A stretch of DNA of 64,000 nucleotides from Betaproteobacteria bacterium (GTDB lineage Bacteria > Pseudomonadota > Gammaproteobacteria > Burkholderiales > JAHFQX01), in contig JAHFQX010000011.1 of the NCBI GenBank assembly GCA_023259135.1, forward strand, positions 54 to 64,053, read 5' to 3'. The translations under genes and the position numbers were made by a program. Shown piece after piece: positions 11,367-42,325 of this stretch. The notes beneath the pieces were generated by a model. That model saw nothing but the letters and a program-made list of their open reading frames with translations. It was not told the origin of the DNA and did no database searches. The first letter of the stretch is position 1. Every line of letters begins with the position of its first letter.

Positions 11367-12266
11367 TCAGGATTTCCTCATGATCTTGACGAACACTTCT
11401 TCCAGGTCGGGCTGGAGCAATTGCATTTCCAGAATGCGGATGCCGGCCCTGCGCAGCTCCGCCAGCACGTGCTCCAGGGTTCCATAGCCCTGCAACGCCA
11501 AAGTGCGCTCTCCGTTTTCGGAGGCGCCGGCCAAGGATTCCAAAGAGGCGGGCAGGCGGTCCGGGTCGAGCCGCAGCTTGAGGATTTGCTCGGAGACCGC
11601 ATTGATGAGGTTCTGGGTGGTATCCAAGGCGACCACCCGGCCCTGCTTGAGCATGGCGATGCGCTGGCACAGGGCCTCGGCTTCTTCCAGGTAATGGGTG
11701 GTGAGGACGATGGTGTGGCCTTCGCTGTTGAGCTTGCGGATGAAAGCCCAGAGGGCTTGCCGCAATTCCACGTCCACGCCGGCGGTGGGTTCGTCCAGCA
11801 CGATGACCTGGGGCTTGTGCACCAGCGCCTGGGCCACCATCACCCGGCGCTTCATGCCTCCGGACAGGGCCCGCATGTTGACGTCGGCCTTGTCTGCCAA
11901 ATCCAGGTGGTGAATGATTTCGTCGACCCAGTCGTCGTTGCGGCGCAAGCCGAAGTAGCCGGACTGAATCCGCAGCGCTTCCCGCACCGTGAAGAACGGG
12001 TCGAACACCAGTTCTTGGGGCACCACGCCCAGGGCTCTGCGGGCTTGCCGGTATTGGGTGGCGACATCGAAGCCCAGCACCGAGGCCTGGCCGCGATCCG
12101 CCTTGACCAGGCCGGCGAGAATGCTGATGAGGGTGGTTTTGCCGGCGCCGTTGGGCCCCAGCAGGGCAAAAAATTCGCCGGGCATCACTTCCAGATCCAC
12201 CCCGTCCAAAGCCCGGAGTGTTCCATAGCTTTTGTAAAGCTGCCGAGCGCAAATTGCGGGAGTCAT
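11367..12266 (-). CDS. ABC transporter ATP-binding protein (ABC-2 partner)
   Basis: The internal ATG (12264-12266) gives MTPAICARQLYKSYG...; Walker [10 protein letters not shown], signature LSGGMKRR, Walker B VIVLDEPT. Confidence 0.9.
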   Translation of the reverse strand: MTPAICARQLYKSYGTLRALDGVDLEVMPGEFFALLGPNGAGKTTLISILAGLVKADRGQASVLGFDVATQYRQARRALGVVPQELVFDPFFTVREALRIQSGYFGLRRNDDWVDEIIHHLDLADKADVNMRALSGGMKRRVMVAQALVHKPQVIVLDEPTAGVDVELRQALWAFIRKLNSEGHTIVLTTHYLEEAEALCQRIAMLKQGRVVALDTTQNLINAVSEQILKLRLDPDRLPASLESLAGASENGERTLALQGYGTLEHVLAELRRAGIRILEMQLLQPDLEEVFVKIMRKS

Positions 12267-12310
12267 GGCGGATGGAGTTTGCGGGGCCGGAGGACGGGCC
12301 CGGAGGCCGG

Positions 12311-12601
12311 TCAGGAATCGGCCGGCTGGAAAATGAGGTCGGTCACCCCGTAGAGCTGGGCAAGACTGGTTAAATTGGTGGGTAGATTGATAAAGCGCAG
12401 CGGTTGACCCTTGTCGAGGCCGGCCCGTGCCCATTCGAGCAACAGGCTGACCGCGGAGGAATCCACCTCGGTCACCTGGGAGAGGTCCACCTCGGTGACG
12501 CCGTTTTGCGCCAGCTTGAGGCCCGCTTCCCGCAAGGCGGCGACGTTGGCCAGGGTCACGCTACCGCTGACCACCATGCGGTTGCCCGCTGCTTGGATCA
12601 T
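12311..12601 (-). CDS. mlaB: STAS-domain protein MlaB
   Basis: 96 aa from the internal ATG with an anti-sigma-antagonist-like fold (VDLSQVTEVDSSAVSLLLEW). ATGA overlap with the mlaC stop; last gene of the mlaFEDCB order. Confidence 0.8.
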   Translation of the reverse strand: MIQAAGNRMVVSGSVTLANVAALREAGLKLAQNGVTEVDLSQVTEVDSSAVSLLLEWARAGLDKGQPLRFINLPTNLTSLAQLYGVTDLIFQPADS

Positions 12602-13236
12602 GGCTTGATGCCGGGAGCCGGCGGCGGAGCGCCCCGGTTCTTCTCGGCCAAGGTTTGGATCAGCCCGTCGATGCCGGATTTCTGGATTTCGGTGGTGAAG
12701 GTGCCGCGGTAGTTGGTGACCAGGCTGACCCCTTCGATGACCACATCGTAGACCTTCCACCCGGCCGGGGTTTTTTGCATGCTGTAGTCCACCGCGAGGG
12801 GCTGGGCGCCGGGTTGGATGATCTGGGTTTTCACCGTGACGTCGGTGTCTTCCGGGGCCATTTTGAAGGGCTTGAATTCCACCGTCTGGTTTTTATAGGA
12901 ACGGAACGCCGTCGTATAAGTGCGAACCAGCAGCGTGCGGAACTCATTCACCAAACTCTGTTGCTGGGCGGGAGTGGCTTGGCGCCAGTTCTTCCCCACC
13001 GCCAGCCGGGTCATGCGGATGAAGTCGAAGTGAGGCAGCACCTTGGCTTCCACCAGGCTCAGCAGCTTTTTCTGGTTGCCGGACTGTAATTCCTTATCCT
13101 GCCGGATGAGGGTCAGCACCTCCTCGGTGGTGGTTTTGGCGAGCTGGTCCGGAGCGATATCGGCGCCAGCCGCCGCAGCCGTCGCCATGATGGCCGCCAG
13201 CCCAGCGAAAAGGAATTTTGAGAATATCGCTTTCAT
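12598..13236 (-). CDS. mlaC: Phospholipid-binding periplasmic protein MlaC (Ttg2D family)
   Basis: 212 aa with a signal peptide (MKAIFSKFLFAGLAAIMATAAAAGA) and ...VLPHFDFIRMTRLAVGKNWRQATPAQQ... Confidence 0.9.
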   Translation of the reverse strand: MKAIFSKFLFAGLAAIMATAAAAGADIAPDQLAKTTTEEVLTLIRQDKELQSGNQKKLLSLVEAKVLPHFDFIRMTRLAVGKNWRQATPAQQQSLVNEFRTLLVRTYTTAFRSYKNQTVEFKPFKMAPEDTDVTVKTQIIQPGAQPLAVDYSMQKTPAGWKVYDVVIEGVSLVTNYRGTFTTEIQKSGIDGLIQTLAEKNRGAPPPAPGIKP

Positions 13237-13269
13237 GTTGTCCCTGCCATTTCTGATGAATCGTGAATT

Positions 13270-13746
13270 TTATTTGCCGTTGTTGCCGGTCCCGCCTTCG
13301 GCGGCGCGGCTAAGGAATTGGCCGATGAGTTTTTCCAGCACCACCGCCGATTGGGTGAGCTGGATCGCGTCCTGGTCCTTCAGGAGCGCCTCATCGCCGC
13401 CCCCGTCCAGGCCGATGTACTGCTCTCCCAACAACCCGGAGGTGAGCACCGAGGCCGTGGTGTCCTTGGGGAATTGGTAGCGCTTGTCGATCTTCAAGCC
13501 CACCCGGGCCTGGAATCGCTTATTGTCGAATTGAATATCGTCGACCCGCCCCACCACCACGCCGGCGCTTTTGACCGGGGCCCTGATCTTGAGGCCGCCG
13601 ATATTTTCGAAGTCGGCGTAGATCTTGTAACTGTCGGACAAGTTGATGCTGCTGGCGTTCCCCACCTTGAGCCCCAATACCAACAAAGCAACTATACCCG
13701 CGGTGACGAATATCCCGACCCAAAGGTCCATTACGCTGCGTTCCAT
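13270..13746 (-). CDS. mlaD: MCE-domain protein MlaD
   Basis: 158 aa with an N-terminal TM and MCE core YKIYADFENIGGLKIRAPVKSAGVVVGRV. Confidence 0.92.
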   Translation of the reverse strand: MERSVMDLWVGIFVTAGIVALLVLGLKVGNASSINLSDSYKIYADFENIGGLKIRAPVKSAGVVVGRVDDIQFDNKRFQARVGLKIDKRYQFPKDTTASVLTSGLLGEQYIGLDGGGDEALLKDQDAIQLTQSAVVLEKLIGQFLSRAAEGGTGNNGK

Positions 13747-13751
13747 GAGTG

Positions 13752-14546
13752 CTATACCCCTCTAAACATGAAGGCTGTGAGGATGAAATCCAAGGCCAGG
13801 ATCGCCAGGGACGACGTGACCACCGTGCGGGTGGTGGCTCCGGAGACGCCTTCCGCCGTGGGGGGGGCGTCGTAGCCCTCGAACAGGGCGATGGCGGTGA
13901 CCGCCACGCCGAACACGAAGCTCTTGATGACTCCGTTGAGAATATCCTGCTGTAAATCCACCGCCGCCTGCATCTGCGACCAGAACGCTCCCGAGTCCAC
14001 GCCGATCAGCACCACCCCGACCAGGTAGCCGCCGAATACACCGACCGCGCTGAACATCGCCGCCAGCAAGGGCATCGAAATCACGCCTCCCCAGAAACGG
14101 GGGCCCACTACCCGGGCGATGGGATCCACCGCCATCATTTCCATGGCGGAGATTTGCTCGGTGGCTTTCATCAGGCCGATCTCGGCGGTCATGGCCGATC
14201 CGGCGCGGCTCGCGAACAACAGCGCGGCCACCACCGGCCCCAACTCCCGCACCAGGGAAAGCGCCACCAGGGTGCCCAAAGCCTCCGCCGAGCCGTAGCG
14301 CTGCAGGGTTTCGTAGCCTTGCAAGCCCAGCACCATGCCGACGAACAGACCGGACACCACAATGATGATGAGGGACAGCGCCCCGGTGAAATAAACCTCC
14401 CGGATGGTGAGCCTGATGCGGCGGAAACTCAAACTCGATTTCAACAGAGTCAGGGCGAAGAAGCGGCTGGCGTAGCCCAGCCGCCAGACGCCGTTGATGA
14501 CCGGATGGCCTACGCTGCGCAGCCCCCGTTGCAGGCGGTCAAGCAC
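13752..14546 (-). CDS. mlaE: Phospholipid ABC transporter permease MlaE
   Basis: Polytopic permease. GTG at 14544-14546 overlaps the mlaF stop (GTGCTTGA) and gives about 264 aa. The ORF track extends to 14615. Confidence 0.88.
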   Translation of the reverse strand: MLDRLQRGLRSVGHPVINGVWRLGYASRFFALTLLKSSLSFRRIRLTIREVYFTGALSLIIIVVSGLFVGMVLGLQGYETLQRYGSAEALGTLVALSLVRELGPVVAALLFASRAGSAMTAEIGLMKATEQISAMEMMAVDPIARVVGPRFWGGVISMPLLAAMFSAVGVFGGYLVGVVLIGVDSGAFWSQMQAAVDLQQDILNGVIKSFVFGVAVTAIALFEGYDAPPTAEGVSGATTRTVVTSSLAILALDFILTAFMFRGV

Positions 14547-15348
14547 CGGAAGCCTCCGCCAACTCCAGATCGCCGGAATAATCCGCCGCCGGATAATGGA
14601 AGGGCACCGGACCATCCATTTCGCCGTGGACGAATTGATGAACGAAAGGGATTTCAGAGCGCCGCATGGCGTCGGGGGCGCCGTGGGCGACGATCTTGCC
14701 TTCGGAGACGAAGTAGACGTAATCGACGATTTTTAGAGATTCCTGAACGTCGTGGGTGACCACGATGGAAGTCGCTCCCAGGGCATCGTTGAGCCGGCGG
14801 ATCAAATTGCCGATCACCCCCAGGGAAATGGGATCCAGGCCGGCGAAGGGTTCGTCGTACATGATCAGCATGGGGTCCAGAGCGATGGCGCGGGCCAGCG
14901 CCACCCGCCGCGCCATGCCGCCAGAAAGCTCCGAGGGCATCAGGCGATGGGCGCCCCGCAAGCCGACGGCGTGCAGTTTCATCAGCACCAAGTCCCGGAT
15001 CATGGATTCGGGCAGTTCGGTGTGCTCCCGCATCTGGAATGCCACGTTGTCGAACACCGACATATCGGTGAACAGGGCGCCGAACTGAAACAGCATGCCC
15101 ATGCGCCGGCGCATGGCGTAGAGCTCGTCGGCATCCAGCTCGTGCATGATGCGCCCGGCGACCTTGACATGGCCCTGGGAGGGGCGAATCTGCCCCCCGA
15201 TCAAGCGCAGCAGGGTGGTTTTGCCGCAGCCGCTGCCGCCCATGATGGATACCACCTTGCCGCGGGGAATCTCCATGTTGATCCCCGTCAAGATTGGACG
15301 CTTGTCGTAGGCGAAATTGAGCTCTTTGATCTCGACCAGGTTTTCCAT
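14539..15348 (-). CDS. mlaF: Phospholipid ABC transporter ATP-binding protein MlaF
   Basis: 269 aa with Walker A GGSGCGKTT, signature LSGGMARR and Walker B LIMYDEPF. Confidence 0.93.
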   Translation of the reverse strand: MENLVEIKELNFAYDKRPILTGINMEIPRGKVVSIMGGSGCGKTTLLRLIGGQIRPSQGHVKVAGRIMHELDADELYAMRRRMGMLFQFGALFTDMSVFDNVAFQMREHTELPESMIRDLVLMKLHAVGLRGAHRLMPSELSGGMARRVALARAIALDPMLIMYDEPFAGLDPISLGVIGNLIRRLNDALGATSIVVTHDVQESLKIVDYVYFVSEGKIVAHGAPDAMRRSEIPFVHQFVHGEMDGPVPFHYPAADYSGDLELAEASGA

Positions 15349-29845: not shown

Positions 29846-29910
29846 GGGGACAGACCACGGTTTCGATAGATAGGGGACAGACCAATAGATAGGGGACAGA
29901 CCACGGTTTC
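29846..29910 (+). repeat. REP array: three direct copies (one truncated) of GGGGACAGACCACGGTTTC
   Basis: Full copies at 29846-29864 and 29892-29910; truncated copy GGGGACAGACCA at 29873-29884. Each is preceded by (GATA)n. The array abuts the 3' end of the RAYT gene. Confidence 0.85.
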
Positions 29911-29913
29911 TTG

Positions 29914-30633
29914 TTACTCATAACCCTGGATCGCAGGCCCCGATTCGACCGTCTTGCTGGGCCGTCCCGATTTTCCCGGTGTCGCTCGCCTGCCCAGCGC
30001 TTCCGATATTTGGGCAGTAAAACGCTCATTACCCAGCGCATAATTGCCGTTCGTTGCCCTTCGTATTTCATCCACCAGTCCGGGATCAAGTTGGTAACGG
30101 AACAGTTCGCGGTAAGCCGCTTGCCTGGCGGCTGCGTCCATTCCCAATGCGTTGTAGAGCGGATGGGGTTTCAAGAGTGCATCATGTTCCCCTTGCGCGT
30201 TCGCCCGATAGCTCGACCAACGATATTCTCCCGGATGGTCCACTATGCCCGCACGTACCGGGTTGAGTTCGATGTAGCGCTGACAGGCCAGCAGATATGT
30301 TTCTTCCTGCGTCAAACAGGAGCGGTAGCGCCCTTCCCACAAGGTGCCGCTACGCCGATAGGTACGGTTCACATGTTGCACATAGCGCTGTCCCAGCGCT
30401 TTCATCAGTTCGCCCGGAGCCTCTGCCCGGTTGACCGATAGCAACATATGCACATGGTTGGTCATTAGCACATAAGCATGGACTTGGCAGCCAGTCTTGT
30501 CGGCGTATTCAGCCAGCCAATCCAGATAAAAGCGGTAGTCTTCGTCAGCAAAGAAACAGGCTTGGCGATTATTGCCGCGCTGGATCAGGTGAAGCGGAAC
30601 ATTCGACAACATGAGCCGGGCTCGGCGGGGCAT
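29914..30633 (-). CDS. REP-associated tyrosine transposase (RAYT; IS200/Y1 HUH family)
   Basis: 239 aa: MPRRARLMLSNVPLHLIQRGNNRQACFF, HUH motif LMTNHVHMLL, catalytic-Tyr region ACQRYIELNPVRAGIV, then YRWSSY. Confidence 0.88.
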   Translation of the reverse strand: MPRRARLMLSNVPLHLIQRGNNRQACFFADEDYRFYLDWLAEYADKTGCQVHAYVLMTNHVHMLLSVNRAEAPGELMKALGQRYVQHVNRTYRRSGTLWEGRYRSCLTQEETYLLACQRYIELNPVRAGIVDHPGEYRWSSYRANAQGEHDALLKPHPLYNALGMDAAARQAAYRELFRYQLDPGLVDEIRRATNGNYALGNERFTAQISEALGRRATPGKSGRPSKTVESGPAIQGYE

Positions 30634-30682
30634 GGGATGGCTCCAAACAGGAGGGCATGATGGAGTTTATCAGAATACCGTA

Positions 30683-30702
30683 GAATACCGTGGTCTGTCC
30701 CC
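30683..30702 (-). repeat. REP copy (reverse orientation) upstream of the RAYT gene
   Basis: gaataccgtggtctgtcccc is the reverse complement of GGGGACAGACCACGGTATTC. It is preceded by a duplicated agaataccgt. Confidence 0.8.
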
Positions 30703-31433: not shown

Positions 31434-31496
31434 GGGGACAGACCACGGTTTCTTGCTACGGCAGACAGGCTGCCCTGAAAACCGTGGTCTGTCCCC
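31434..31496. repeat. REPIN-like doublet: two inverted copies of the island REP
   Basis: GGGGACAGACCACGGTTTC (31434-31452), a 24-nt spacer, then GAAAACCGTGGTCTGTCCCC (31477-31496). Can fold as a long hairpin. Preceded by an (AAT)4 tract. Confidence 0.85.
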
Positions 31497-31986
31497 TGTT
31501 TCCTGGTCCCTGGAGGCTGTAGGGCGCCGTGCCGTCGCTGCCGATCGGGCCGCCGTTCGCCAGGAATTCCACCTGCGCCACCGTACCGTCGGGATCGGCG
31601 GCGCTGGCGCTCAGGGTGATCGGGCTTCCGGCCTGATGAAGGCTTCCGGCGCCAGGGGCGGTGAGGGACACCGTGGGGGCCAGGTTGGTGCAGGGGAGGG
31701 CGCCCGCGCGCGCCCGAAACCGCACCCGCCCGCCCGAGGGAAGGCTGGCGTAGCTGAGGGTGACGACGCCGCTCGCGGTGAAGCCGTTCGCCATCGGGGG
31801 GTAATAGAAAAAAAGGTTCTGCTCGGCCTCCTGGTTGGTCCCCGTCTGCGACAGGCTTCCCGTGACCGATTGGCCGTTGAGACTGCTCACCGTGGCGGCC
31901 AGGATGGTCTGCGGGCCGATGCTCGCGTTGGTGCTCACGGCAAACTGCAGGCCATTGCCCGCCTCCATCCCCGAGGGGTAACTCAA
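31456..31986 (-). pseudogene. Fragment of a secreted protein with an Ig-like (bacterial Ig/chitinase-N type) domain, truncated at both ends
   Basis: GC-rich ORF with PTVSLTAPGAGSLHQAGSPITLSASAADPDGTVAQVEFLANGGPIGSDGTAPYSL. The last 18 codons are a translation of the REPIN. TTG pseudo-start with in-frame stops just upstream. Confidence 0.45.
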
Positions 31987-32040
31987 GCTCAGTAAATCAA
32001 TTCGAGCCTGGAACCTTTTTCGTTCTAGGCCGGGCGTCGA

Positions 32041-32547: not shown

Positions 32548-33099
32548 CTATTCCGGGTAGATCCGAACTTGCGAGAAACGAGCGCGCGACGCCGCGAGAA
32601 TCGCTCGCTCGGCTTTTGTATCAATCGAGTCGTCCAGCAGACCGCGAAGCTTCTTGGGCAGATCGTCGTTGTTGAGCATGAATCCGACCGTAGGCATTCG
32701 GTTGAAGACGACGAAGTAACCTGTGTCCGTTGGTTCGAGCTTCGCATTCCCATACCGCTTTTTCGCATCGCCAAGCCGCGAACCGAGGCCGATTCCATCC
32801 CTGTTGCGGCAAGCCGCATAGATGTCGATAAACACAACTCGCCCATCATTGCTCAGCGAGAAGGAGTAAAGCCTTTCACGCGATGGCAATTGAAGCACTT
32901 CGATTCGGCGCTGCGCGCCCTGGGTTGAGCGCTCTGCGACGCTGTAGTCCGCAGTAAACGCCTCTCGAATCTTCTGCTCCGGATCACCGATCTTTATCTG
33001 TGGTAACCCCTTTGGATCGAACACGCATTCGCCGCCGTAGACCCATGGCGGGTTCATAAGCACGAGGAGAGCGACCAAGGCTAGCTGAATCGTTCTCAT
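32548..33099 (-). CDS. Candidate periplasmic immunity protein for the RHS C-terminal toxin
   Basis: The ATG at 33097-33099 overlaps the toxin stop (ATGA). Signal peptide MRTIQLALVALLVLMNPPWVYG. 183 aa, no recognisable family. Confidence 0.55.
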   Translation of the reverse strand: MRTIQLALVALLVLMNPPWVYGGECVFDPKGLPQIKIGDPEQKIREAFTADYSVAERSTQGAQRRIEVLQLPSRERLYSFSLSNDGRVVFIDIYAACRNRDGIGLGSRLGDAKKRYGNAKLEPTDTGYFVVFNRMPTVGFMLNNDDLPKKLRGLLDDSIDTKAERAILAASRARFSQVRIYPE

Positions 33100-33917
33100 G
33101 GCGTACTCCGGATCTGCTGGCACACGCACTCGTCCGGCTCGATCTTTGGATTGAAACCATTTCTGAGATCAACGTGAACGTGCGCAGGGTAGTCCTTCGC
33201 CAAGACGAAGAATCCGCACTCTGCCGCTGCCCGGCGAAGCTTTGACTTCGATGGGGGTACGTGCACGTCTGCAGCAAGTCCTGTGAGGTGGTAACTCTTC
33301 GGCGCCGCCCCTGGCGTCCCAAGGTTCTGCCCAGGACCGCGCGTACCGCTGGACAGGTAGATTGTCGTATTCAGGCATGTGCTCATGCACTCGAGACCCA
33401 CCATGACAAGCGGATCTGGGAGGCCTGACGTCATGCCGCAACAAGTCTGTACCTCTCGGCCGTCCGGATCGAATGCCGAAATGGGCCGGCCAAGTGCGTA
33501 GAGGTAAAGGTTGGCTAGCTGCGTCGTAGCCGTGGATCCACTTGTCGTAGTAGTACCAATGCCGGCCGGGTCCGGCTGCGTGTAGCGCCCGAGGCCTGGG
33601 TCGTAGGCATCGCGCTCACCGTTATAGAAGAGGCCGGTTTCGCGATCCCGGCGCTGCCCCGGGAAGGCGAGGTCGAACTGGAACGTTCCTAGTCCTGACG
33701 GATTTTCGTCGGCGGGCGAGCCGCCGAACGGTTCTGTGTTGTCTGAACGCCAGACCAGCTGTTGCTGATCGTTATAGACTTGGCGCGGTGTCCCTAAATG
33801 ATCGGCGTGCACGAAGAAATACGCCGGCGCCGTCTGCACGTTCACCGGCACCAAGCGTATCGCATCCGCGATCACATAGAAGGAAGGGGTCAGGTCTTTC
33901 GTTATCACATTGCTCAT
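33096..33917 (-). CDS. RHS core C-terminal end plus polymorphic toxin domain (LAS/peptidase-M15-like), detached fragment
   Basis: YFFVHADHLGTPR...FPGQRRDRETGLFYNGERDAYDPGLGRYTQPDPAGI is the canonical Rhs core end with DPxGI, followed by linker NLYLYALGRPISAFDPDG. The toxin carries SYHLTGLAADV (S-x-H-x2-G-x-A-x-D) and AHVHVD. The first 11 codons (MSNVITKDLTP) are encoded by the inserted element. Confidence 0.75.
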   Translation of the reverse strand: MSNVITKDLTPSFYVIADAIRLVPVNVQTAPAYFFVHADHLGTPRQVYNDQQQLVWRSDNTEPFGGSPADENPSGLGTFQFDLAFPGQRRDRETGLFYNGERDAYDPGLGRYTQPDPAGIGTTTTSGSTATTQLANLYLYALGRPISAFDPDGREVQTCCGMTSGLPDPLVMVGLECMSTCLNTTIYLSSGTRGPGQNLGTPGAAPKSYHLTGLAADVHVPPSKSKLRRAAAECGFFVLAKDYPAHVHVDLRNGFNPKIEPDECVCQQIRSTP

Positions 33918-34850
33918 CTCCGGTCCGCTTCATAAGCCTTCACCAACCGGCTCACGGTCGTGTAGTGCACGCCGAAATGCTCTGCAATTGCCGCCATCGT
34001 ATGCCGACCGGACAAATAGGCAAGAGCAATGGCTTCGTCGCGCGCGTGCGCGGCGGCATAGTCGGACAGCGCACGCTTGAGTGCGCGGCGTTGCGTGCGC
34101 GGGATCTCTGTGAGCGAAGGTTTTTTGTCGACCCAAGCCTGCATTTTCGCGACGAACGCGTCCGAGCCGAGATAGACTTGCCCCTGCAATTGGCTCCACA
34201 CACTGGACAACCGCGCGCCCTCGCGGACAAAGGCCACATATTTCGCGATGGCGCGGGCACGCTGTGACGCGAATTGCGAAAGGGTGAAGTCAACTTGCAA
34301 CCACTCCGGCCTGGCCGCTTGCCCACAGGTGGCGGGGAAACTGCTCCACGGCCATTGATCGAGGCGCCGGACCCGCTTGGCGCGCAGCGGGTTCAGAACG
34401 ACGTAACGGGCAAGCTCCAGCAGATAGCGGTCCTTTTCCACCAGAATGGCTTTGTAGCGCCCTTGAAATACGTGTCCCACGCGCCCATGGCTGCGGTTGA
34501 ATCGCTGAGTGTACACCCCGTTCAACTGGCGCATGCCTTTCGAGAGGTTGGCATCCGGCGTTTCGATGAGTAGATGATAGTGGTTGGTCATCTGGCAATA
34601 GGCATGGCACGCCCAGTTGAAACGGGTGCAGACTTGAGCCAGAGTTTCAAGCCATGCCACGCGATCCTCATCGGACAGGAAAATGTCCTCGCGCCCGTCC
34701 CCGCGAGAAGTGACGTGATAGAGCGCGCCTGCGAGTTCCAGTCTTAGCGGTCTGGCCATGATGGGCTGGATAATAGCCGGGCGGATGTGATAATGAAAGA
34801 CCTGACCCCATTACCTGGTGTGACCCCATTACCGTGGTGACCCCATTACC
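33886..34850 (-). mobile_element. Y1-transposase element inserted in the rhs gene
   Basis: 23-bp inverted repeats with 1 mismatch: GGGGTCAGGTCTTTCGTTATCAC (33886-33908) and GTGATAATGAAAGACCTGACCCC (34787-34809). Three direct copies of TGACCCCATTACC at 34803-34815, 34821-34833 and 34838-34850. Confidence 0.7.
33914..34759 (-). CDS. IS200/RAYT-like Y1 (HUH) transposase with C-terminal DnaA-C-like HTH
   Basis: 281 aa: MARPLRLELAGALYHVTSRG, HUH motif QMTNHYHLLIE, Tyr region ELARYVVLNPLRA, WPWSS, and C-terminal LSGRHTMAAIAEHFGVHYTTVSRLV. Confidence 0.85.
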   Translation of the reverse strand: MARPLRLELAGALYHVTSRGDGREDIFLSDEDRVAWLETLAQVCTRFNWACHAYCQMTNHYHLLIETPDANLSKGMRQLNGVYTQRFNRSHGRVGHVFQGRYKAILVEKDRYLLELARYVVLNPLRAKRVRRLDQWPWSSFPATCGQAARPEWLQVDFTLSQFASQRARAIAKYVAFVREGARLSSVWSQLQGQVYLGSDAFVAKMQAWVDKKPSLTEIPRTQRRALKRALSDYAAAHARDEAIALAYLSGRHTMAAIAEHFGVHYTTVSRLVKAYEADRR

Positions 34851-36965
34851 CCGTGGAGAATCGCTGATGCCCGTCAGCCGGTGGGCGGCATCGTAGGCGT
34901 AGGTGAGCGAGGAGCCGTCGGGCAGCGTGACTTGCGTCAACTGTCCCACGCCGTCATAGGCGTAGCCCGTGGTCTCGCCGCCCACCGAGCGGGAGAGGAG
35001 CCGCCCGCGGGCGTCGTAGGCGAGCTGGGTGGTGAGCCCGTTGGGATCGACGATCGTCAAGGGCCGGCCATGGGGGTCGTAGGCGGGGATGCTCGTGGTG
35101 TGGCCGAGCGCGTTCGTCATCGTGGCCAGGTTGCCCCGCTTGCCGAGATCCGGATCGTCGGGGGGGTGGTAAGTGATGGTGGTGAGGTCGGCAACGTCGG
35201 TGCGGGGACCGTCCACGATCATTTGGGTAACCAGTCCTGGGGTCGTGGCTGAGTAGCTGGTGCTGTGGGTCCAGACCCGGCTTTTGCCGGAGGCGAGGTC
35301 GGTGACGGTCTTGCCGAGCAAGTTGCCCAGGGCATCGTAGGTCAAATCCGTGGTGCGCCCCGGCTCGGTGATGCGGGTCGGCAGCCGGAAGGTGGGGTGC
35401 CAGATCGTGCCAATGGTGCGGGCCTGGGGGGTGCCGGAGGCTTCGGTGCGGGAGGTTTCCAGGTCGGCTCGCCCATAAGCATCCGCTCTCTGATAGGTGG
35501 TCTGGATGCCGTTCCAGTCGGTACGCGAAGCGGTGAATCCGTTGGCGTCAAAGCTGCTGGCAGCAGGCCCGCAGCCGGGGCAGGCCGCACCGGCAATCGC
35601 CAGGGTGCGTACGCTGCCCAGCATGACCTGGAAACTGTATGTCCGGGTGGCGGATACCGTGGAGCTAATGGACTGAGTGACGGTGGAAATGCCGGGATCG
35701 TAGGCGACCGTCACCCGGTTCGCTCCTCCAGCGTGCTCGGAGAGGGTGGCGCGCCCCGCGCCATCGTAGCTCCAGGTCGCAAAGCGGTCACCGTTTTCGT
35801 CGGTAATGCCGGTCAGCGCATGGGGGAAGCCGGGATTCTCATAGTGGTAAATCCGGGTTTTGTTATCCGGATAGCGTATGGAAGCGAGGTGACCTTCCCC
35901 ATCGTAGCCCAAGGTGAATACCTCGCCTCCGGGAGCGGTAACAGTGGCGATTCGATCCTGGGCGTCGTAGCTAAAGGTCAGCGTTCCTCCGAGACTGTGG
36001 GTGACCGAGGCAAGCCTTCCCAGGGCATCATAGGCCAGCGCGTGGGTCAGCCCGGCCCGATTGGCGATGGCGGTTAACCGGCCATCGATGTCGTAGCTCT
36101 CGACCTCATCGTCTGGCGCGGGGGTATAGCGCCAGCCGGCCGGAGCACCCTGGGCGTCGGTCAATCGCTCTAAACGATCCGTGATGTCGGCATCGGGCAC
36201 CCAAGCGCCGCCATTCAGATTGAACAGCAAGGTGCGCCCGTCAGGGCGTCGCACATAAGCGGTACTGATCCCCGCCATGACAGAGAGCTTGATGGAGCGG
36301 TGGTAATTTCCGCGCCAACGCCAGCCTAGGCTCGCTTTGAGGGCTGAAGGGTGGCTGTTGTAGGTCCGCACGAAGCGCAGCGGAAATGGCCCCGCTCCTT
36401 GGTAGTCGGTCTCGACCTGTACCTTGTTGCCAGTGCCAATGTTGATCGGGTTGGTGCAATCGGAGGTGCAGTCGCTGCCATTGTTTTTTTGGGGATCGAG
36501 CGCGGTGTCGCTGAGCGTGCAGGTCCCATCGGCCCCGTTTTGCCACCACCCCGCAGGGCAAACGTTGGCTTTGACAATGATGCGATTTTGGAGGTAGATG
36601 CCAGCACCACACCCCGTTTCATAGCACGTGCAGCCGTAGTCCCAGCCCTCGGACGCGAAGGGGGGCGGAAGATCCGGTGAGACTCCGCAGTACTCAATGT
36701 GACGGATTGAAGTCGTTCCCGTCAGCCCCGACTGGTTTAGCGGGACCAAACCGCATAGGGTGCAGGCGCCGGCGTTAAGCGGGACCGGGATCGAGTCCGC
36801 GGGAACAAAGGTTTCAATGGCGATGGTGGCGGCGGACGCGGGGATCGCCCCGGCCAACGGGCTAAGCCACAGCGCAAGGCAGGCTACCCGGCGGAGATGC
36901 GCTCCAACGGCGCGCATGACGCAACTACCGTCGCCGACTGGGCGGGATGCGAGCGCAACTGGCAT
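34668..36965 (-). CDS. RHS/YD-repeat protein, N-terminal part (interrupted; RHS-derived only down to about 34853)
   Basis: Signal peptide (MRAVGAHLRRVACLALWLSPLAGAIPASA) and a Cys-rich N-domain, then repeated YD motifs (YDALGRL, YDAQDRI, YDGEGHL, YDGAGRA, YDALGNL, YDARGRL, YDGVGQL, YDAAHRL). The C-terminal about 60 codons translate element repeats. Confidence 0.85.
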   Translation of the reverse strand: MPVALASRPVGDGSCVMRAVGAHLRRVACLALWLSPLAGAIPASAATIAIETFVPADSIPVPLNAGACTLCGLVPLNQSGLTGTTSIRHIEYCGVSPDLPPPFASEGWDYGCTCYETGCGAGIYLQNRIIVKANVCPAGWWQNGADGTCTLSDTALDPQKNNGSDCTSDCTNPINIGTGNKVQVETDYQGAGPFPLRFVRTYNSHPSALKASLGWRWRGNYHRSIKLSVMAGISTAYVRRPDGRTLLFNLNGGAWVPDADITDRLERLTDAQGAPAGWRYTPAPDDEVESYDIDGRLTAIANRAGLTHALAYDALGRLASVTHSLGGTLTFSYDAQDRIATVTAPGGEVFTLGYDGEGHLASIRYPDNKTRIYHYENPGFPHALTGITDENGDRFATWSYDGAGRATLSEHAGGANRVTVAYDPGISTVTQSISSTVSATRTYSFQVMLGSVRTLAIAGAACPGCGPAASSFDANGFTASRTDWNGIQTTYQRADAYGRADLETSRTEASGTPQARTIGTIWHPTFRLPTRITEPGRTTDLTYDALGNLLGKTVTDLASGKSRVWTHSTSYSATTPGLVTQMIVDGPRTDVADLTTITYHPPDDPDLGKRGNLATMTNALGHTTSIPAYDPHGRPLTIVDPNGLTTQLAYDARGRLLSRSVGGETTGYAYDGVGQLTQVTLPDGSSLTYAYDAAHRLTGISDSPRGNGVTTVMGSHQVMGSGLSLSHPPGYYPAHHGQTAKTGTRRRALSRHFSRGRARGHFPVR

Positions 36966-37082
36966 GAAACCTCCCTAGGTCATTCAGCGCATCCGCTTCA
37001 TCTGAATGGCATGTTGGGTTAACTCCGTCGGATTCCAGCATGGTGATAGTGAGTTATCAAGCAAATTCGTCTTAGAGAGCGG

Positions 37083-38618
37083 TCAAGGCACCCGTTTCGA
37101 AAAATCCTTGGGTCTGATCCCGGTGAGCCATAAGCCAACCCAATAGACTATGGCCCCCAGCGGAACCAGCCACCCCAGCCGCCCGATCCGGCCGAACAGC
37201 GGCGCCGAGAGCCACCAATCCGCCGCCCCGGCCGCGGCCCACAGGGTGATCCCCATCAGGGCCAGGGCCGCTGTCACTTGCAGCAGAAATTTTCGCCAGC
37301 CTGGCTGGGGGCGATAAATTTCCGCCCGGCGCAGTTCCCGATACAACAGCCCGGCGTTGAGGCAGGCTCCCAGGCCGATGGCTAGCGCCAATCCCGCGTG
37401 CCGCAGGGACCAGATGAAAAGCAGATTCATGGCCTGGGTGGCCGCCAGGGTGATCAGGGCGATTTTCACCGGGGTCTTGATGTTCTGCCGGGCATAAAAA
37501 CCGGGGGCCAGCACTTTGACCAAAATCAGTCCGAGCAAGCCGATGCTGTAAGCCACCAGGGCTTGCCGAGTCATTTCCACATCCGCGACGCCGAACGCCC
37601 CATGGTGGAATAAAGTGGCGATCAGCGGAACCGCCAGCAACGCCAAGGCCAAGGCGGACGGCAGCGCCAGCAGCAAAGTCAGCCGCAGCCCCCAATCCAG
37701 CAGCCTGGAATATTCTTCCGTATCCCGGCTTGCATGATGCTTGGCCAGGGTGGGCAACAAGATGGTCCCCAGAGCCACCCCCAGCAAGCCTGTCGGAAAC
37801 TCCATCAGCCGGTCCGCGTAATACAGCCAGGAAACGCTGCCGTTGGCCAGAAACGAGGCGAAAACGGTGTTGATGAGCAAGCTGATTTGGCTGATGGAAA
37901 CGCCGAACACTGCCGGCCCCATGAGCCGGACGATGCGCCATACGCCTTCGTCGCGAAGATTCAGGCGCAGCCTGGGCAATAGCCCATGGCGCGCCAGAAA
38001 GGGCAACTGAAAGGCCAACTGCAATGCTCCGCCCAGCAAGACTGCCCAGGCCAGCGCCATGACCGGAGGATCGAAATAAGGCGCCAGCCCCAGGGCGAAA
38101 ACGATAAAAGAAACATTCAGCAACACCGGGGTAAAAGCCGGGACCGAGAACTTCCCATAGGTGTTGAGCAGTCCGGCGCAGAGCGAAACCAGGGAAATAA
38201 ACAAAATATAGGGGAAGGTGATCCGGAGCAGATCGACGGTGAGGGCTGCCTTTTCCGGGGTGGCGGCGAATCCCGGGGCCGTCAGGTAAACGATCTGCGG
38301 GGCGAGCAGGACGCCCAGGGCCGCAACCGTCAGCAGCGCCACCAGCAACAAGCTCGCCACGTGGCCGACCAGTTCCAGGGTGGCGCTCGACCCGCGCCGG
38401 TTCTTGTATTCCGCCAGGATGGGAACAAAGGCCTGGGAAAAAGCCCCTTCGGCGAACAGCCGGCGGAGCAAATTGGGAATGCGGAAAGCGACAAAGAAGG
38501 CATCGGTGGCGGCGCCGGCTCCGAAGGCCCGGGCGATGGCGGCATCCCGGATAAAACCGAGAATCCGGGACAGCAAGGTATAACCGCTGACGGTGGCCAG
38601 GGCTTTGAGGAGATTCAT
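37083..38618 (-). CDS. murJ: Lipid II flippase MurJ (MviN)
   Basis: 511 aa: MNLLKALATVSGYTLLSRILGFIRDAAIARAFGAGAATDAFFVAFRIPNLLRRLFAEGAFSQAFVPIL. Confidence 0.95.
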   Translation of the reverse strand: MNLLKALATVSGYTLLSRILGFIRDAAIARAFGAGAATDAFFVAFRIPNLLRRLFAEGAFSQAFVPILAEYKNRRGSSATLELVGHVASLLLVALLTVAALGVLLAPQIVYLTAPGFAATPEKAALTVDLLRITFPYILFISLVSLCAGLLNTYGKFSVPAFTPVLLNVSFIVFALGLAPYFDPPVMALAWAVLLGGALQLAFQLPFLARHGLLPRLRLNLRDEGVWRIVRLMGPAVFGVSISQISLLINTVFASFLANGSVSWLYYADRLMEFPTGLLGVALGTILLPTLAKHHASRDTEEYSRLLDWGLRLTLLLALPSALALALLAVPLIATLFHHGAFGVADVEMTRQALVAYSIGLLGLILVKVLAPGFYARQNIKTPVKIALITLAATQAMNLLFIWSLRHAGLALAIGLGACLNAGLLYRELRRAEIYRPQPGWRKFLLQVTAALALMGITLWAAAGAADWWLSAPLFGRIGRLGWLVPLGAIVYWVGLWLTGIRPKDFSKRVP

Positions 38619-38636
38619 GGAAACGATGTCCGCCGG

Positions 38637-40574
38637 TCAGGCGACTCGAGCGGCTTCGGCATCCTCGGGATGGGCGGCGATGGCTTTCAAGACGGTATCC
38701 AATTCCCCAATCTGTTCGCGCAATTGCCGATGCCGGGAAGCCAGCTCCTGAAAACGATCCCGGGCGGAGTGCACGTCGGCGGCGATTTTCCGGGCGCTTT
38801 GCGCCCGATCGATCAAAAGGGCCTCATGGCGCTTGATCTGGGACAGGATTGGGGCAAAAGCGCCCTTGAGCCAACTCTCGGTTTCCTGGCGGGCTTCGGC
38901 GAACAACAACCGCGCTTCGGTGGCCAGTCTGTGATAAAACTTGCGGATCAGAAAGCGCTTTTCCGTCATCACGTTGATCGGATCGGTGCAAAAAGCCTGA
39001 GTGGCCGCCTCCAGGGCCTGCATGCGCAATGCATAGCTGTCCATATCCAGAGGTGGGACAGGAACTCGGGGGAAGCCGCATTTTTCGTGGAATTCGTCGT
39101 AGGCGGAGTCCACCGTTTCCTTTGTCCGGTTCGCGTAGGCGGCGATTTTGTCGGTTTGCTCGCGAAAATGCCGGAGCAGGGAGATCATCCCCCGGGCTAA
39201 TCCCGCCGTGGTCCAGCTTCCCTCCAAATCGGCCAGCTCGGTTCTCAAAATCGTGTCGATACGCTGGCTTTCCAGGGCGGCTAGCAGCAGGGCGCCGTGC
39301 TTCATGAGTTCCTGGCGGCGGTTTTTGAAGGCGCCGACCACCTTGCGCAGCCCGGCCTTGTCGTTTTCCAGCCGGGCGGCCAGCGACTCATAGGCTTCGC
39401 GGCCCTGTCCCGCCAGTTCCTTGAGCTCCGCCAGCTCCCGGTGCAGCGCCTCCAGCTCGCTCCGGACGCCTTGCCGGGAAGCCACAACCATGTTGCCGAT
39501 TTCCCGTCCCACCGCGGCGCGTAAAATATTCAGCCGGGCGGGAATGATTTCCTCGGCCAGCAGCCGTTCCAGGCGCCGGATTCCGCTTTTCTCCAGCATG
39601 GCCTCGTCGTTTCGGATCTTGGCCAACAGCGCTTTCTGGGCGGAGAGAGCCAGCACATGTCGCCGCGGAAGATCCAGGATCTCGGCGGTATTCTCGATTT
39701 GACGCTGGATGGTTTCGCGAATCTCCTCATCGGATTTGAGCTCGTCCCACAGCAGGTCGATCTTGTTGAGGACGGCAATGCGGTGCGCCACGGCGCGCTG
39801 CACGCATTTTTCCCAGACTTCCATGTCGGAGCGGGTCACGCCCGTATCCATCGCCAACAGGAACAGCACCGCGTGAGCATGGGGAATCATGCTCAAGGTC
39901 AGCTCCGGCTCCACGCCCAAGGCGTTCAGGCCCGGCGTGTCGAGGATCACCAAGCCGTTTTTCAGCAGCGGGTGGGGATAATTGATGAGGGCGTGGCGCC
40001 AGGCCGGGATTTCCAGCTTATCGTGCTTCACCACCACGGTGGTGATTCCGGCGCCTTCCGCCCCCACCGCCAGCCCGAGCTCGCGGGCCTCATCGAGGGT
40101 GACGGTCTTGGATTCGGTCAGGCTCTTCATGGCCTGCGCCATTTGCTCCGGGGATTCGAGATTGAGGCGGATTTTGAGCCATTCGACGGGCTTGCGCCGC
40201 AAGCTGGCCAGACTCTCGTCGCTGCGCCGGGTTTCGATGGGCAGCAGCCGGATGTGGGGAACGTCATCGGGATCGTAAAAAATTTCCGTGGGGCACATGG
40301 TGGTGCGGCCCACGTCGGAGGGCAGCAGCCGCCGCTTGAAATCCGAGAAGAACAAGGCATTGATCAGCTCGGTTTTGCCTCTGGAGAACTCGGCGAGGAA
40401 GGCCAGCGTCACCCGGTCATGACGCAAGGCCTCGGTCAAATCGTAGATGCGCAAGGATTGCTGAATATCGCCGAAACCCTGTCGTTCCAGCCAGCTTTGG
40501 TAGGATTGAATGGTGATGATGAGTTCGTCCCGCCAGCGACGGAAACCCTCGATCTGCCGTTCCAGCAAGGTCAT
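38637..40574 (-). CDS. Bacterial dynamin-like GTPase family protein
   Basis: The ATG at 40572-40574 gives 645 aa. P-loop-like LAEFSRGKTELINALF, G-domain ILDTPGLNA, NKIDL, and a long helical stalk. ATGA overlap with the yggU stop. Confidence 0.75.
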   Translation of the reverse strand: MTLLERQIEGFRRWRDELIITIQSYQSWLERQGFGDIQQSLRIYDLTEALRHDRVTLAFLAEFSRGKTELINALFFSDFKRRLLPSDVGRTTMCPTEIFYDPDDVPHIRLLPIETRRSDESLASLRRKPVEWLKIRLNLESPEQMAQAMKSLTESKTVTLDEARELGLAVGAEGAGITTVVVKHDKLEIPAWRHALINYPHPLLKNGLVILDTPGLNALGVEPELTLSMIPHAHAVLFLLAMDTGVTRSDMEVWEKCVQRAVAHRIAVLNKIDLLWDELKSDEEIRETIQRQIENTAEILDLPRRHVLALSAQKALLAKIRNDEAMLEKSGIRRLERLLAEEIIPARLNILRAAVGREIGNMVVASRQGVRSELEALHRELAELKELAGQGREAYESLAARLENDKAGLRKVVGAFKNRRQELMKHGALLLAALESQRIDTILRTELADLEGSWTTAGLARGMISLLRHFREQTDKIAAYANRTKETVDSAYDEFHEKCGFPRVPVPPLDMDSYALRMQALEAATQAFCTDPINVMTEKRFLIRKFYHRLATEARLLFAEARQETESWLKGAFAPILSQIKRHEALLIDRAQSARKIAADVHSARDRFQELASRHRQLREQIGELDTVLKAIAAHPEDAEAARVA

Positions 40575-40876
40575 GGCAATCGTTCCCAGCGGGCCAATAG
40601 CGGCTGGCTGTCCTCGGCGGCGGGGGCCAATTCCAGCATTTTCCTCCGCCCACGGTTGCCTTGGAGCAGCGCCACGCGGCTGGGCGCCACGCCGAAGCTG
40701 CGGCCAAGAAACTCGATCAGGGCGGTGTTGGCCCGCCCGTCCACCGCCGGCGCCGCCAATTTTATTTTCAACGCGTCTCCATGAACGCCTACCACCGCCG
40801 TCCGGGAAGCGCCCGGCTGCACCGTCACGACAAGCCGCAACCGGCCGTCCCGCCAATGATACCAAGACGCCGTCAT
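40571..40876 (-). CDS. yggU: DUF167 protein YggU
   Basis: 101 aa: L.V.VQPGASR....G.HGDALKIKLAAPAVDGRANTALIEFL. Confidence 0.85.
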   Translation of the reverse strand: MTASWYHWRDGRLRLVVTVQPGASRTAVVGVHGDALKIKLAAPAVDGRANTALIEFLGRSFGVAPSRVALLQGNRGRRKMLELAPAAEDSQPLLARWERLP

Positions 40877-40880
40877 GAAG

Positions 40881-41459
40881 TCAGAACAGCCGGGGAGCCA
40901 GGCTTTCCAGCCATCCTACCAGAACGATCAACGCGACCTGACAGGCGATCAACAGAATCAGGGGGGAAAGGTCGACGTTGGCGATGGGCGGGATGCGCTT
41001 TTGCAGCGGCCGCAGGAAAGGCCGGGTCAGGCCGTTCAACAGCGGAGCCAGGGGATGGTAGGGATTCACCCAACTGAATACGGCCTGGATCACCACCGCA
41101 ACCATGAGGATATAAACCGACAGCCGCAGCAAATAAACCGTGGCCAGCCAGGCGATCGACAGGAAAACGAAGCCGCGGCCGAAAATCATGGCGCCCCGGG
41201 GGCTGAGCAGGCTCAAGGTCAGCAGCAAAACGAACGACACTCCCCAAGCCAGCACCAGGGTGGCCATATCCATTTTCCGGAATGCCGGAATGACGCGGCG
41301 GGCCGGCCGCACGGCGAAATCGGTCAAGGCGATGAGAAAACGGCCCACCGGGTTGCCGAAGGGCAGCCGGAAAAGTTGCAGATAGAAGCGCAGCAACAGC
41401 GCCAGCAAAAAAAAGCTCAGCACGCTGTTCAGCAAAAACTGCAAGGCGTGGTTGATCAT
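40881..41459 (-). CDS. yggT: YggT-family integral membrane protein
   Basis: The internal ATG at 41457-41459 gives 192 aa with two YggT repeats (...FAVRPARRVIP... / ...LTRPFLRPLQKRIPPIANVDLSPL). Confidence 0.85.
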   Translation of the reverse strand: MINHALQFLLNSVLSFFLLALLLRFYLQLFRLPFGNPVGRFLIALTDFAVRPARRVIPAFRKMDMATLVLAWGVSFVLLLTLSLLSPRGAMIFGRGFVFLSIAWLATVYLLRLSVYILMVAVVIQAVFSWVNPYHPLAPLLNGLTRPFLRPLQKRIPPIANVDLSPLILLIACQVALIVLVGWLESLAPRLF

Positions 41460-41617
41460 AACGGACCAGTGAAAAACAAAGGTTTGTATTCTACATGCTA
41501 TCCTTAGACCGGCGCCGAAGCGAGTCGCGCAATCCCGCGGCTGCGCAGGGGGACTTTTCCGGGGGTGGGCATGGGGCAAGCCGCCGAGTTAAGATGCGCC
41601 ATCCGGAGTGATCTGCC

Positions 41618-41647
41618 CCGGCCCGCTTGGCCGCGGGCCGGCTTTTT
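41618..41647 (+). terminator. Intrinsic-terminator-like hairpin in the yggT / tonB-family divergent intergenic region
   Basis: CCGGCCCGC (41618-41626), loop ttggcc, GCGGGCCGG (41633-41641), then C TTTTT (41643-47). Lies 10 nt upstream of the tonB-family ATG. No upstream plus-strand CDS. Confidence 0.45.
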
Positions 41648-41656
41648 GTCGATTCC

Positions 41657-42325
41657 ATGTCCGTTCTCGCTCCCCTTGCCCGGTTCCGCCTCACGTCGGG
41701 TTCGCAAAAGCTGCTGTTGGCATTGCTGCTGTCCTTGGCCGGTCACGGCGTGCTTGTTCAGCGACTTTCCTGGCGGCCGGCGATTCCCTCTCCGGTTGTT
41801 CCGCCGCCCTTGACGGTGGCGCTGAAAGCCCCGCCCCGCCCCGTTGTTCCCGTGGCTACGGGGGCCCCGCAAAAAATATCGATGGCCCGGGCTTCCCGGC
41901 AGCCGCTTGCTCCGGCGCCGCTGCTGACCGCCCCGCAAGGGCCGGCGGAAACATCGGTTCCGCCCGCCCCCGCCCTCCTTCCCCGGCCGGCGGAGGCGCC
42001 GGCGGAGCGGGCAGCGAGTCCCACTCCCGCTCCGTCCCGTGAAGCGCCGCCGCGCCGCTTCGGCGCGGGCTATCTCAATAATCCGCCGCCCCCTTATCCT
42101 GCCTTGGCCCGGCGCTTGAAGTTGCAAGGCACGGTCATGCTGCGGGTCACGGTGAGCCGGGAAGGCGCTGCGCGGGCCGTGGAGGTGGACGAGTCGTCGG
42201 GCAGCCCGTTGCTGGATCAGGCCGCGGCCCAAGCAGTGCGGAATTGGCGCTTTACTCCGGCGCGGCTGGGGGACGTTCCGGTGGAGGAAGCGGTGCGGGT
42301 GCCGGTCAGCTTCCGGCTGGAGTAA
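41657..42325 (+). CDS. TonB-family energy transducer (C-terminal TonB domain)
   Basis: TM anchor, Pro-rich spacer, and C-terminal domain YPALARRLKLQGTVMLRVTVSREG....V.V..SSG...LD.AA..AVR.WRF.PA. The ORF track starts at a TTG at 41627. Confidence 0.85.
   Translation: MSVLAPLARFRLTSGSQKLLLALLLSLAGHGVLVQRLSWRPAIPSPVVPPPLTVALKAPPRPVVPVATGAPQKISMARASRQPLAPAPLLTAPQGPAETSVPPAPALLPRPAEAPAERAASPTPAPSREAPPRRFGAGYLNNPPPPYPALARRLKLQGTVMLRVTVSREGAARAVEVDESSGSPLLDQAAAQAVRNWRFTPARLGDVPVEEAVRVPVSFRLE

Follow-up and report, generated by a model that had tools for sequence, protein, structure and literature searches.

Does the RHS/YD-repeat sequence at about 33-37 kb of the 64,000-nt window analysed here (contig JAHFQX010000011.1 of a betaproteobacterial assembly; all coordinates are window positions) represent one polymorphic-toxin gene cut in two by a transposase element, or the remains of a different kind of locus? 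A first-pass annotation took the former view and proposed that the two open reading frames (ORFs) flanking the element could be rejoined in frame. Our analysis indicates that this is probably a decayed two-gene RHS toxin locus, with predicted export by the Sec route, that has undergone insertion of a TIRtron and an element-associated deletion. Domains were assigned by Pfam and NCBIfam profile searches of ORF products, and both RHS halves were aligned to ~90 full-length homologues of 1200-1700 aa. Relatives of the transposase in genomes were examined at the best 80 matching genome loci. Loci and proteins used for comparison carry L and P numbers, respectively.

The 5' part of the locus is ORF 34668..36965 on the minus strand, referred to here as gene A'. 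As described in the first-pass annotation, it has a signal-like N-terminus and runs through YD repeats. The profile searches placed a DUF6531 domain (E 5.5e-17) after a Cys-rich region, followed by six RHS_repeat stretches (Pfam RHS_repeat 2.2e-46; YD_repeat_2x 4.3e-37). The putative signal peptide, MRAVGAHLRRVACLALWLSPLAGAIPASA followed by AT, was read by eye from the translation. RHS homology stops at residue 703 (...AHRLTGISDS), nt ~34857, close to the previously suggested limit of 34853. The frame then reads on through element sequence to 34668, and the translation past the RHS end was, as first proposed, that of the element's repeats: three tandem GGTAATGGGGTCA-containing units at 34803-34857. 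The product of gene A' would comprise an incomplete shell of 703 residues and a nonsense tail of 62. An exact look-up of the 765-aa ORF product returned no identical entry.

An intact allele of this gene was found through P0316, a 1192-aa member of the 90%-identity cluster of the N-half protein. The locus encoding P0316, L117, was 98.5% identical in DNA to window 42147..34858 over 7302 nt (dynamin, MurJ and gene A), and gene A' was 98.4% identical to P0316 in amino acid sequence (11 differences/704). The homology ended at ...GATTC (window 34858 / L117 12108). Past 12108, L117 gene A runs for 489 more codons, ending ...EYIYLGDIPVAVIQ and a stop codon, and no transposase element was present at the equivalent L117 position. 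Gene B of L117 is a separate ORF of 664 aa that begins 26 nt after the gene A stop. Its product starts with a putative signal peptide (MKKIKTAGALVFGLWLLATGVVCAQS). Three Golvesin_C domains follow, all of them with GYVIADA... as their end, and after ...MYFVHTDHLNTPR come the Rhs core and the toxin.

Separate A and B ORFs, whose stop and start codons are conserved, were also found in L095, L097 and L093; natively separate genes were what the first-pass annotation itself had said would refute its reading. In these loci and L117, the A/B spacing ranged from a 4-nt overlap to a 26-nt gap. Gene A encodes a shell of 1100-1250 aa with no core or toxin and ends in the motif YLGD[IA]PV[AG]V[IFV]Q plus stop. 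The product of gene B has a putative signal peptide, then Golvesin_C domains, two or three in number, and ends with the Rhs core and a variable toxin. By eye, gene A of L097 and every B gene show signal-like N-termini resembling that of gene A'. Set against a complete shell (a gene A of ~1100-1250 aa or a one-piece protein of 1200-1700 aa), gene A' retains 703/1192 codons. The idea that the ~1650-aa one-piece homologues contain a Golvesin domain was rejected, as none contains one. A literature search found no account of a split RHS architecture of this kind (a shell plus a separately secreted Golvesin-plug-toxin gene) and no link between Golvesin and Rhs. Among the split loci, L095 has two B genes in series and L093 has extra stub orphans starting at DHLNTPR. 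A short motif, PV.V.Q, occurs both at the end of gene A and at the Golvesin/core boundary of gene B.

The 3' part of the window locus, gene B', lies in ORF 33096..33917 on the minus strand. The first-pass annotation had the RHS core resume beyond the element. A core is indeed present up to ...PDPAGI (Rhs-associated core TIGR03696, E 2.5e-16; PF03527), followed by a Peptidase_M15_3 toxin domain (PF08291, E 2.6e-7), but the FYVIADAIRLVP segment assigned to that core is the last strand of a Golvesin_C domain and belongs to a separate gene. In the window, FYVIADAIRLVPV corresponds to the strand that closes the final Golvesin_C domain in a B-type gene, and the Golvesin_C remnant in gene B' reads YVIADAIRLVPV. 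Residue 14 of the C half aligned to residues 274/400, 412/667, 417/657 and 415/664 of intact B genes, and the window keeps only the last ~250 codons of a B-type gene. No RHS fragments other than A' and B' were found in the 64-kb window.

The first-pass annotation had suggested aligning both halves to intact homologues, and this alignment revealed that the halves are not contiguous. Among the ~90 one-piece homologues, the N half ended at subject residue ~500-920 and the C half began 450-710 residues beyond that end. Measured on L117, the stretch absent between the break points is 12109..14847, or 2.74 kb, which holds 489 codons of gene A and about 414 of gene B. The core of window B' was 48% identical to that of L117 gene B and the toxin was different. 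By these alignments B' is a different cassette rather than the orthologue of L117 gene B, and the actual loss may therefore be larger than 2.74 kb.

The element between the break points is 0.98 kb long. Its left limit was set where homology to L117 is lost, and its right limit from the divergence of a 99%-identical copy of the element, L001, together with the start of Golvesin/RHS homology at TAT GTG (YV); the precision is about +/-2 nt. L001 shares the sequence ...TGACCCCTTCCTT, after which its right flank diverges, placing the right end of the element at about 33880. Both break points are flush with intact element termini. The right junction and everything down to 31400 were reproduced at 99.96% in a second assembly, L118. 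An ORF with a Big_7 (bacterial Ig) domain lies downstream of the toxin/immunity pair in the window and also downstream of gene A in L117, so that the window contig is colinear with a real neighbourhood.

The presence of a Y1-transposase mobile element that truncates the RHS toxin locus, as first annotated, was borne out. The transposase matched Y1_Tnp (E 8.9e-13, residues 13-120), and its C-terminus contains a helix-turn-helix (HTH) at residues 244-278 (HTH_28 7.1e-7; HTH_23 4.9e-6). The HUH motif is H60-Y61-H62 and the candidate catalytic residue is Tyr119 in RYVVLNP, both read from the translation. The NCBIfam score was 79.7 bits for REP_Tyr_transpos, 0.3 under the cut-off of 80, and 19.3 bits for transpos_IS200 against a cut-off of 55. 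A PDB sequence search returned no relative of the transposase. The public annotation of the source contig (65,375 nt) has a shorter, 225-aa transposase (P0321) that lacks the first 56 residues; comparison with homologues supports the 281-aa start.

The gene is bracketed by 25-nt terminal inverted repeats (TIRs), which the first-pass annotation did not mention and both of which begin GGGGTCAG. Each tandem unit at the left end is a duplicate of the outer 7 nt of the left TIR and of the short stretch bordering it on the outside. The flanking repeat lacks self-complementarity, and no additional copy of it was found in the 64-kb window. TIRtrons, whose transposases are termed TIRYTs, are presented in the available text of Di Nocera et al. 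(2013, PMC3733652) as RAYT-like genes flanked by TIRs sharing GGGGWSAS, and TnpA_REP subclass 2.1 corresponds, in that of Quentin et al. (2018, PMC6006769), to the TIRYT class with a C-terminal HTH. In the literature searched, the term appears in no papers but these two. Since it combines Y1_Tnp and HTH domains with 25-nt TIRs that fit GGGGWSAS, the window element is, on its sequence features, a TIRtron/TIRYT of TnpA_REP subclass 2.1.

Transposase homologues numbered more than 8000, many of them 77-90% identical and many on ~1-kb stand-alone contigs. The best 80 genome loci came mostly from metagenome-assembled genomes of Beta- and Gammaproteobacteria, with protein identities of 56-85% and mostly one copy of the element family per genome. 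A search of genome contigs for further copies of the element gave a best match of 85% identity, and a plasmid collection held distant relatives only (50% identity or less), annotated 'transposase'. Most related loci, including ones with as little as 56% protein identity, have the 12-mer GGGTCAGGTCTT at the corresponding position. In related loci, some 45 nt separate the motif GGGGTCAGGTCTT[GT]C... from the start codon downstream of it, and the inverse motif is found just past the stop codon.

TIRYTs are treated as probably domesticated, with no evidence of movement, in the available text of both publications (PMC3733652, PMC6006769). A 282-aa transposase, P0134, is 85% identical to that of the window. 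Exact copies of P0134 with identical element ends (GCAGA-GGGGTCA... and ...TGACCC-TAGATGC) occurred in at least five unrelated flanking contexts, and no target duplication was seen at the P0134 insertions compared. From this comparison of contexts, and from the different right flank of L001, the 99%-identical copy of the window element, it appears that the element family moves. L003 and L006 were also considered as two contexts of one element, but the near flank is common to both and the pair is uninformative for mobility.

Tandem tip duplications like that of the window were found in 22/39 related loci having a recognisable TIR pair, at either end of the element. The duplicated tip consists of the outermost 6-13 nt plus GGGGTCA, with which the TIR starts, and sometimes extends over the entire TIR. 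Copy number varied between samples at one insertion context (L003/L007/L011; L112/L113). This points to slippage at the tip or to repeated cutting and religation there. An RHS origin of the GGTAAT (Gly-Asn) in the window units was considered, as homologues read ...D[NS]LGN..., and rejected: only 6/9 nt match the 98.5% allele, and the P0134 copies assign the 5-7 nt beyond the GGGGTCA core to the element.

Both points of breakage directly abut complete termini of the element, and insertion of the element and loss of its flank form the simplest history of the locus. The order and mechanism that we infer start from a gene A shell of ~1192 aa, a gene B 26 nt downstream and then an immunity gene. 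A TIRtron would have inserted into this locus, and flanking DNA would subsequently have been lost from one end of the element, either by transposase-mediated adjacent deletion or by homologous recombination between two directly repeated element copies. The outcome would be a TIRtron lying between codon 703 of gene A and ~codon 415 of an M15-type B gene. Several points weigh against this history. To our knowledge, adjacent deletion has been demonstrated for no Y1 or TIRYT enzyme. The left junction (gene A'|element) is known from this one contig only, and near-identical copies of the element occur in metagenomes. Searches for an intact allele of the M15-toxin gene B gave nothing closer than relatives of 61-75% identity; the metagenome contigs searched for one yielded only 61-71% relatives, all of them orphan cassettes. 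B' could originally have been a more distal cassette of an array. Finally, since B' is not the orthologue of L117 gene B, at least one further replacement event separates the window genome from L117.

An unlikely alternative is that part of A', the TIRtron, B' with its M15 toxin, the immunity gene and sequence beyond were imported by recombination from a diverged strain with the junctions preformed. In that case insertion and deletion took place elsewhere, or B' never stood next to this gene A. Import would be consistent with the differences from L117, which rise toward the junction (8, 4, 2, 1 per 200 nt), although with 15 differences/800 nt the gradient is weak. It would also agree with the 48% identity of B' to L117 gene B, which carries another toxin, and with the nearest M15 toxin homologues of known context: in L093 they are orphans within a cassette array, and in L094 they come after a different RHS C-terminus. 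Diversification by cassette recombination is established for RHS loci (PMC3482391). Import merely shifts the origin of two flush junctions to another genome, however.

Less probable still is an assembly collapse, in which two direct TIRtron copies, one at codon 703 of A and one at ~codon 415 of B, were merged and 2.7 kb dropped. As a repeat, the element exceeds a short-read insert in length, many members of the family sit on ~1-kb stand-alone contigs, contigs L001, L002 and L118 break inside the element or at its ends, and the left junction was seen once. Such a collapse needs two independent insertions in the same orientation within 2.7 kb, and it has to be set against a 65-kb contig that spans the element and a family found mostly as one copy per genome in the best 80 genome loci. 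The split of a single continuous RHS gene by simple insertion, with excision restoring it in frame, is refuted by the intact allele L117: sequence of the RHS system, correctly ordered and on one strand, does lie on either side of the element, and the ORFs are arithmetically joinable in frame, but 489 A codons and about 414 B codons are missing, A and B are natively separate in L117, L095, L097 and L093, the B toxin is a different one, and the nucleotides proposed for the join (cca cgg / cct tcc ttc) most probably come from the tips of the element, because L117 homology stops at ...GATTC and L001 has ...TGACCCCTTCCTT. In-frame rejoining would restore nothing.

If the locus decayed by insertion and deletion, its toxin could no longer be delivered, since gene B' has neither signal peptide nor Golvesin domains. 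At best, B' would be translated from an ATG borne by the element, at 33917 in its right end, just upstream of the right TIR. An M15 peptidoglycan peptidase stranded in the cytoplasm would be unable to act as a delivered toxin. The transposase stop and the start of the gene B' ORF overlap as ATGA at 33914-33917. This overlap is fortuitous, given that the right TIR follows closely after its ATG; translational coupling could nevertheless allow the stranded piece of toxin to be made. A second ATGA overlap, at 33096-33099, joins the toxin stop to the start of the following ORF. This 183-aa ORF has a signal-like N-terminus, and its product matched no Pfam or NCBIfam family. It is likely to be the immunity gene, because its homologues (56-64% identity) directly follow M15-toxin homologues in two metagenome contigs, L093 and L094. 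The intact, presumably periplasmic immunity protein would persist as the product of an orphan gene and may protect against the same toxin from relatives. The coordinates of these features are given in Table 1.

Table 1. Features of the interrupted RHS toxin locus in the window, and comparison loci
Feature	Coordinates	Strand	Basis or remarks
Gene A', 5' 59% of RHS shell gene (codons 1-703 of ~1192)	34858..36965	-	Pfam, L117 alignment
TIRtron, entire: tip repeats, left TIR, transposase gene, right TIR, right tip TTCCTT	33880..34857	-	L117, L001 comparison
Tandem tip units x3, 17-19 nt each, CCACGG(GG)TAAT+GGGGTCA	34803..34857	-	
Left TIR, GGGGTCAGGTCTTTCATTATCACAT	34785..34809	-	25 nt, 96% complementary to 33886-33910
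TIRYT gene, 281-aa Y1/HUH transposase with C-terminal helix-turn-helix	33914..34759	-	Pfam, NCBIfam
Right TIR	33886..33910	+	Inverted-repeat match to left TIR
Gene B', 3' ~40% of B-type gene: Golvesin_C last strand, Rhs core, Peptidase_M15_3	33096..33879	-	Profiles, intact-B alignments
Candidate immunity gene, 183 aa from ATG at 33099	32548..33099	-	Synteny of homologues in L093, L094
Split RHS loci	L117 10001-15600; L095 979-6269; L097 594-5545; L093 2-3935		
Loci with tip duplication	L014, L017, L023, L026, L036, L041, L047, L056, L065, L077, L080, L081, L085, L086, L088, L108, L112-L114; window 34803-34857		

All parts of the locus are of known kinds: Rhs polymorphic toxins, orphaned toxin/immunity modules and TIRtrons. 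Like described TIRtrons, the window element has a RAYT-like Y1/HUH domain and a C-terminal HTH_23/HTH_28-like domain, belongs to a family with mostly one copy per genome, and has its gene flanked by long inverted repeats that replace the REP hairpins and start GGGGWSAS. Unlike the TIRtrons of the naming papers, as far as their available text goes, it stands at a gene-destroying deletion junction, has an 85%-identical relative in at least five contexts, and shares with its relatives a systematic tandem tip duplication, of which the available text of PMC3733652 and PMC6006769 makes no mention. With IS200/IS605 elements it shares the HUH/Y1 catalytic domain and, in relatives with definable ends, the lack of target-site duplication. 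IS200/IS605 elements ('peel and paste') have subterminal hairpins and no TIRs, however, whereas the window element has TIRs; their TnpA is ~130-155 aa with no HTH, and the window transposase remains at 19.3 bits on the IS200 model (cut-off 55). Its best NCBIfam match, REP_Tyr_transpos, and the inverted short-repeat copies bracketing the gene recall RAYT/REPtron-REPIN systems, as does a REPIN-like miniature doublet (31434-31496) of a second element type in the window. In contrast to those systems, the window repeat is not a GTAG-tagged palindrome and has no dispersed copies within 64 kb, and the transposase has an extra ~140-aa C-terminal region with the HTH.

The toxin genes resemble Rhs polymorphic toxin loci (PMC3150448, PMC3967940, PMC3482391) in their YD shell, core ending DPxG[LI], variable toxin and immunity gene, and resemble Rhs loci with orphan cassettes in that a C-terminal fragment has been left with no delivery module. 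They differ in that a plug and toxin of the window type natively form a separate Sec-signal gene with Golvesin_C, in that the window fragment was made at the end of a mobile element and not by cassette displacement, and in that the system is exported by a predicted Sec signal with no adjacent type VI secretion system genes.

As a genome feature, a toxin island eroded by a mobile element, with a dead toxin gene and an orphan immunity gene, is ordinary. Its value lies in the natural history of an understudied class: a TIRtron with complete ends stands at a gene-destroying junction, and a near-identical 'empty' allele, L117, allows comparison. We know of no experimental study of TIRtrons, which were described in 2013 and 2018. 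TIRtron termini could be defined from multiple contexts with no target duplication, and the unstable tandem tip duplications hint at where the enzyme cuts. These termini and tips, and the TIRtron at a gene-destroying junction with its empty allele, may be new. The recurrent position of TIRtrons by RHS toxin-immunity pairs (see below) and the split RHS architecture seen in four loci may be new as well.

A wider and doubtful proposal is that TIRYTs, rather than being inert, domesticated genes, actively reshape polymorphic-toxin islands, and that breakage and rejoining driven by the transposase are concentrated at their termini. If so, TIRYT elements could delete, and perhaps capture, toxin/immunity cassettes. 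This would fit tip duplications that are family-wide and variable between samples, truncations flush with element ends or repeats (both ends of the window element, the Big_7 ORF and a primase-like ORF of L117), and TIRtrons placed immediately 3' of RHS toxin-immunity pairs on the same strand in 6/80 genomes.

The window contains a second, different TIRtron at 29846-30702, with its gene at 29914-30633 (minus strand). Its 239-aa protein matched Y1_Tnp (E 4.5e-15) and was 29% identical to the first transposase; no HTH was detected in it. The flanks carry GGGGACAGACCACGG at 30688-30702 and inverted copies at 29892-29906 and 29846-29860, and the right end has a tandem tip duplication too, GTCTGTCCCCTATCTAT x3. 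The REPIN-like doublet mentioned above is 63 bp long and consists of two inverted GGGGACAGACCACGG repeats 33 nt apart. The Big_7 ORF (31456-31986, minus strand) breaks off at profile position 55/70, with the doublet ~13 nt beyond the break-off point. This ORF was 58% identical to the Big_7 region of P0242, a B-type M15 toxin protein; with it, the window has a second toxin-cassette-like fragment whose end lies at a TIR repeat. The junction of Big_7 ORF and doublet recurs in L118. An Rfam scan gave sub-threshold noise only.

L117 contains a solo TIR of the TIRtron family (GGGGTCAGGTCTTGCATTACGACAT) at 17437-17486, preceded by GCAGACAC x3, which cuts a primase-like ORF (...CPFHDDREPSLVIS...). About 200 nt past it lies sequence 98% identical to window 31992..31933. 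Since the solo TIR cuts an ORF so near window-like sequence, TIR-associated break points recur in the neighbourhood of both genomes. In the six genomes noted above (L095(=L014), L021, L060, L068, L076 and L081), an RHS toxin gene and a small immunity gene are followed, after 100-550 nt, by the TIRtron; the strand is the same in every case, and in none does the TIRtron precede the pair. This placement looks non-random, as judged with no null model. In L006, a metagenome locus, the three genes (192 aa, 260 aa and NTP_transf_8) that flank the P0181 TIRtron on the right are also present on its left when compared with L003/L095, pointing to a duplication or to a composite structure around the element.

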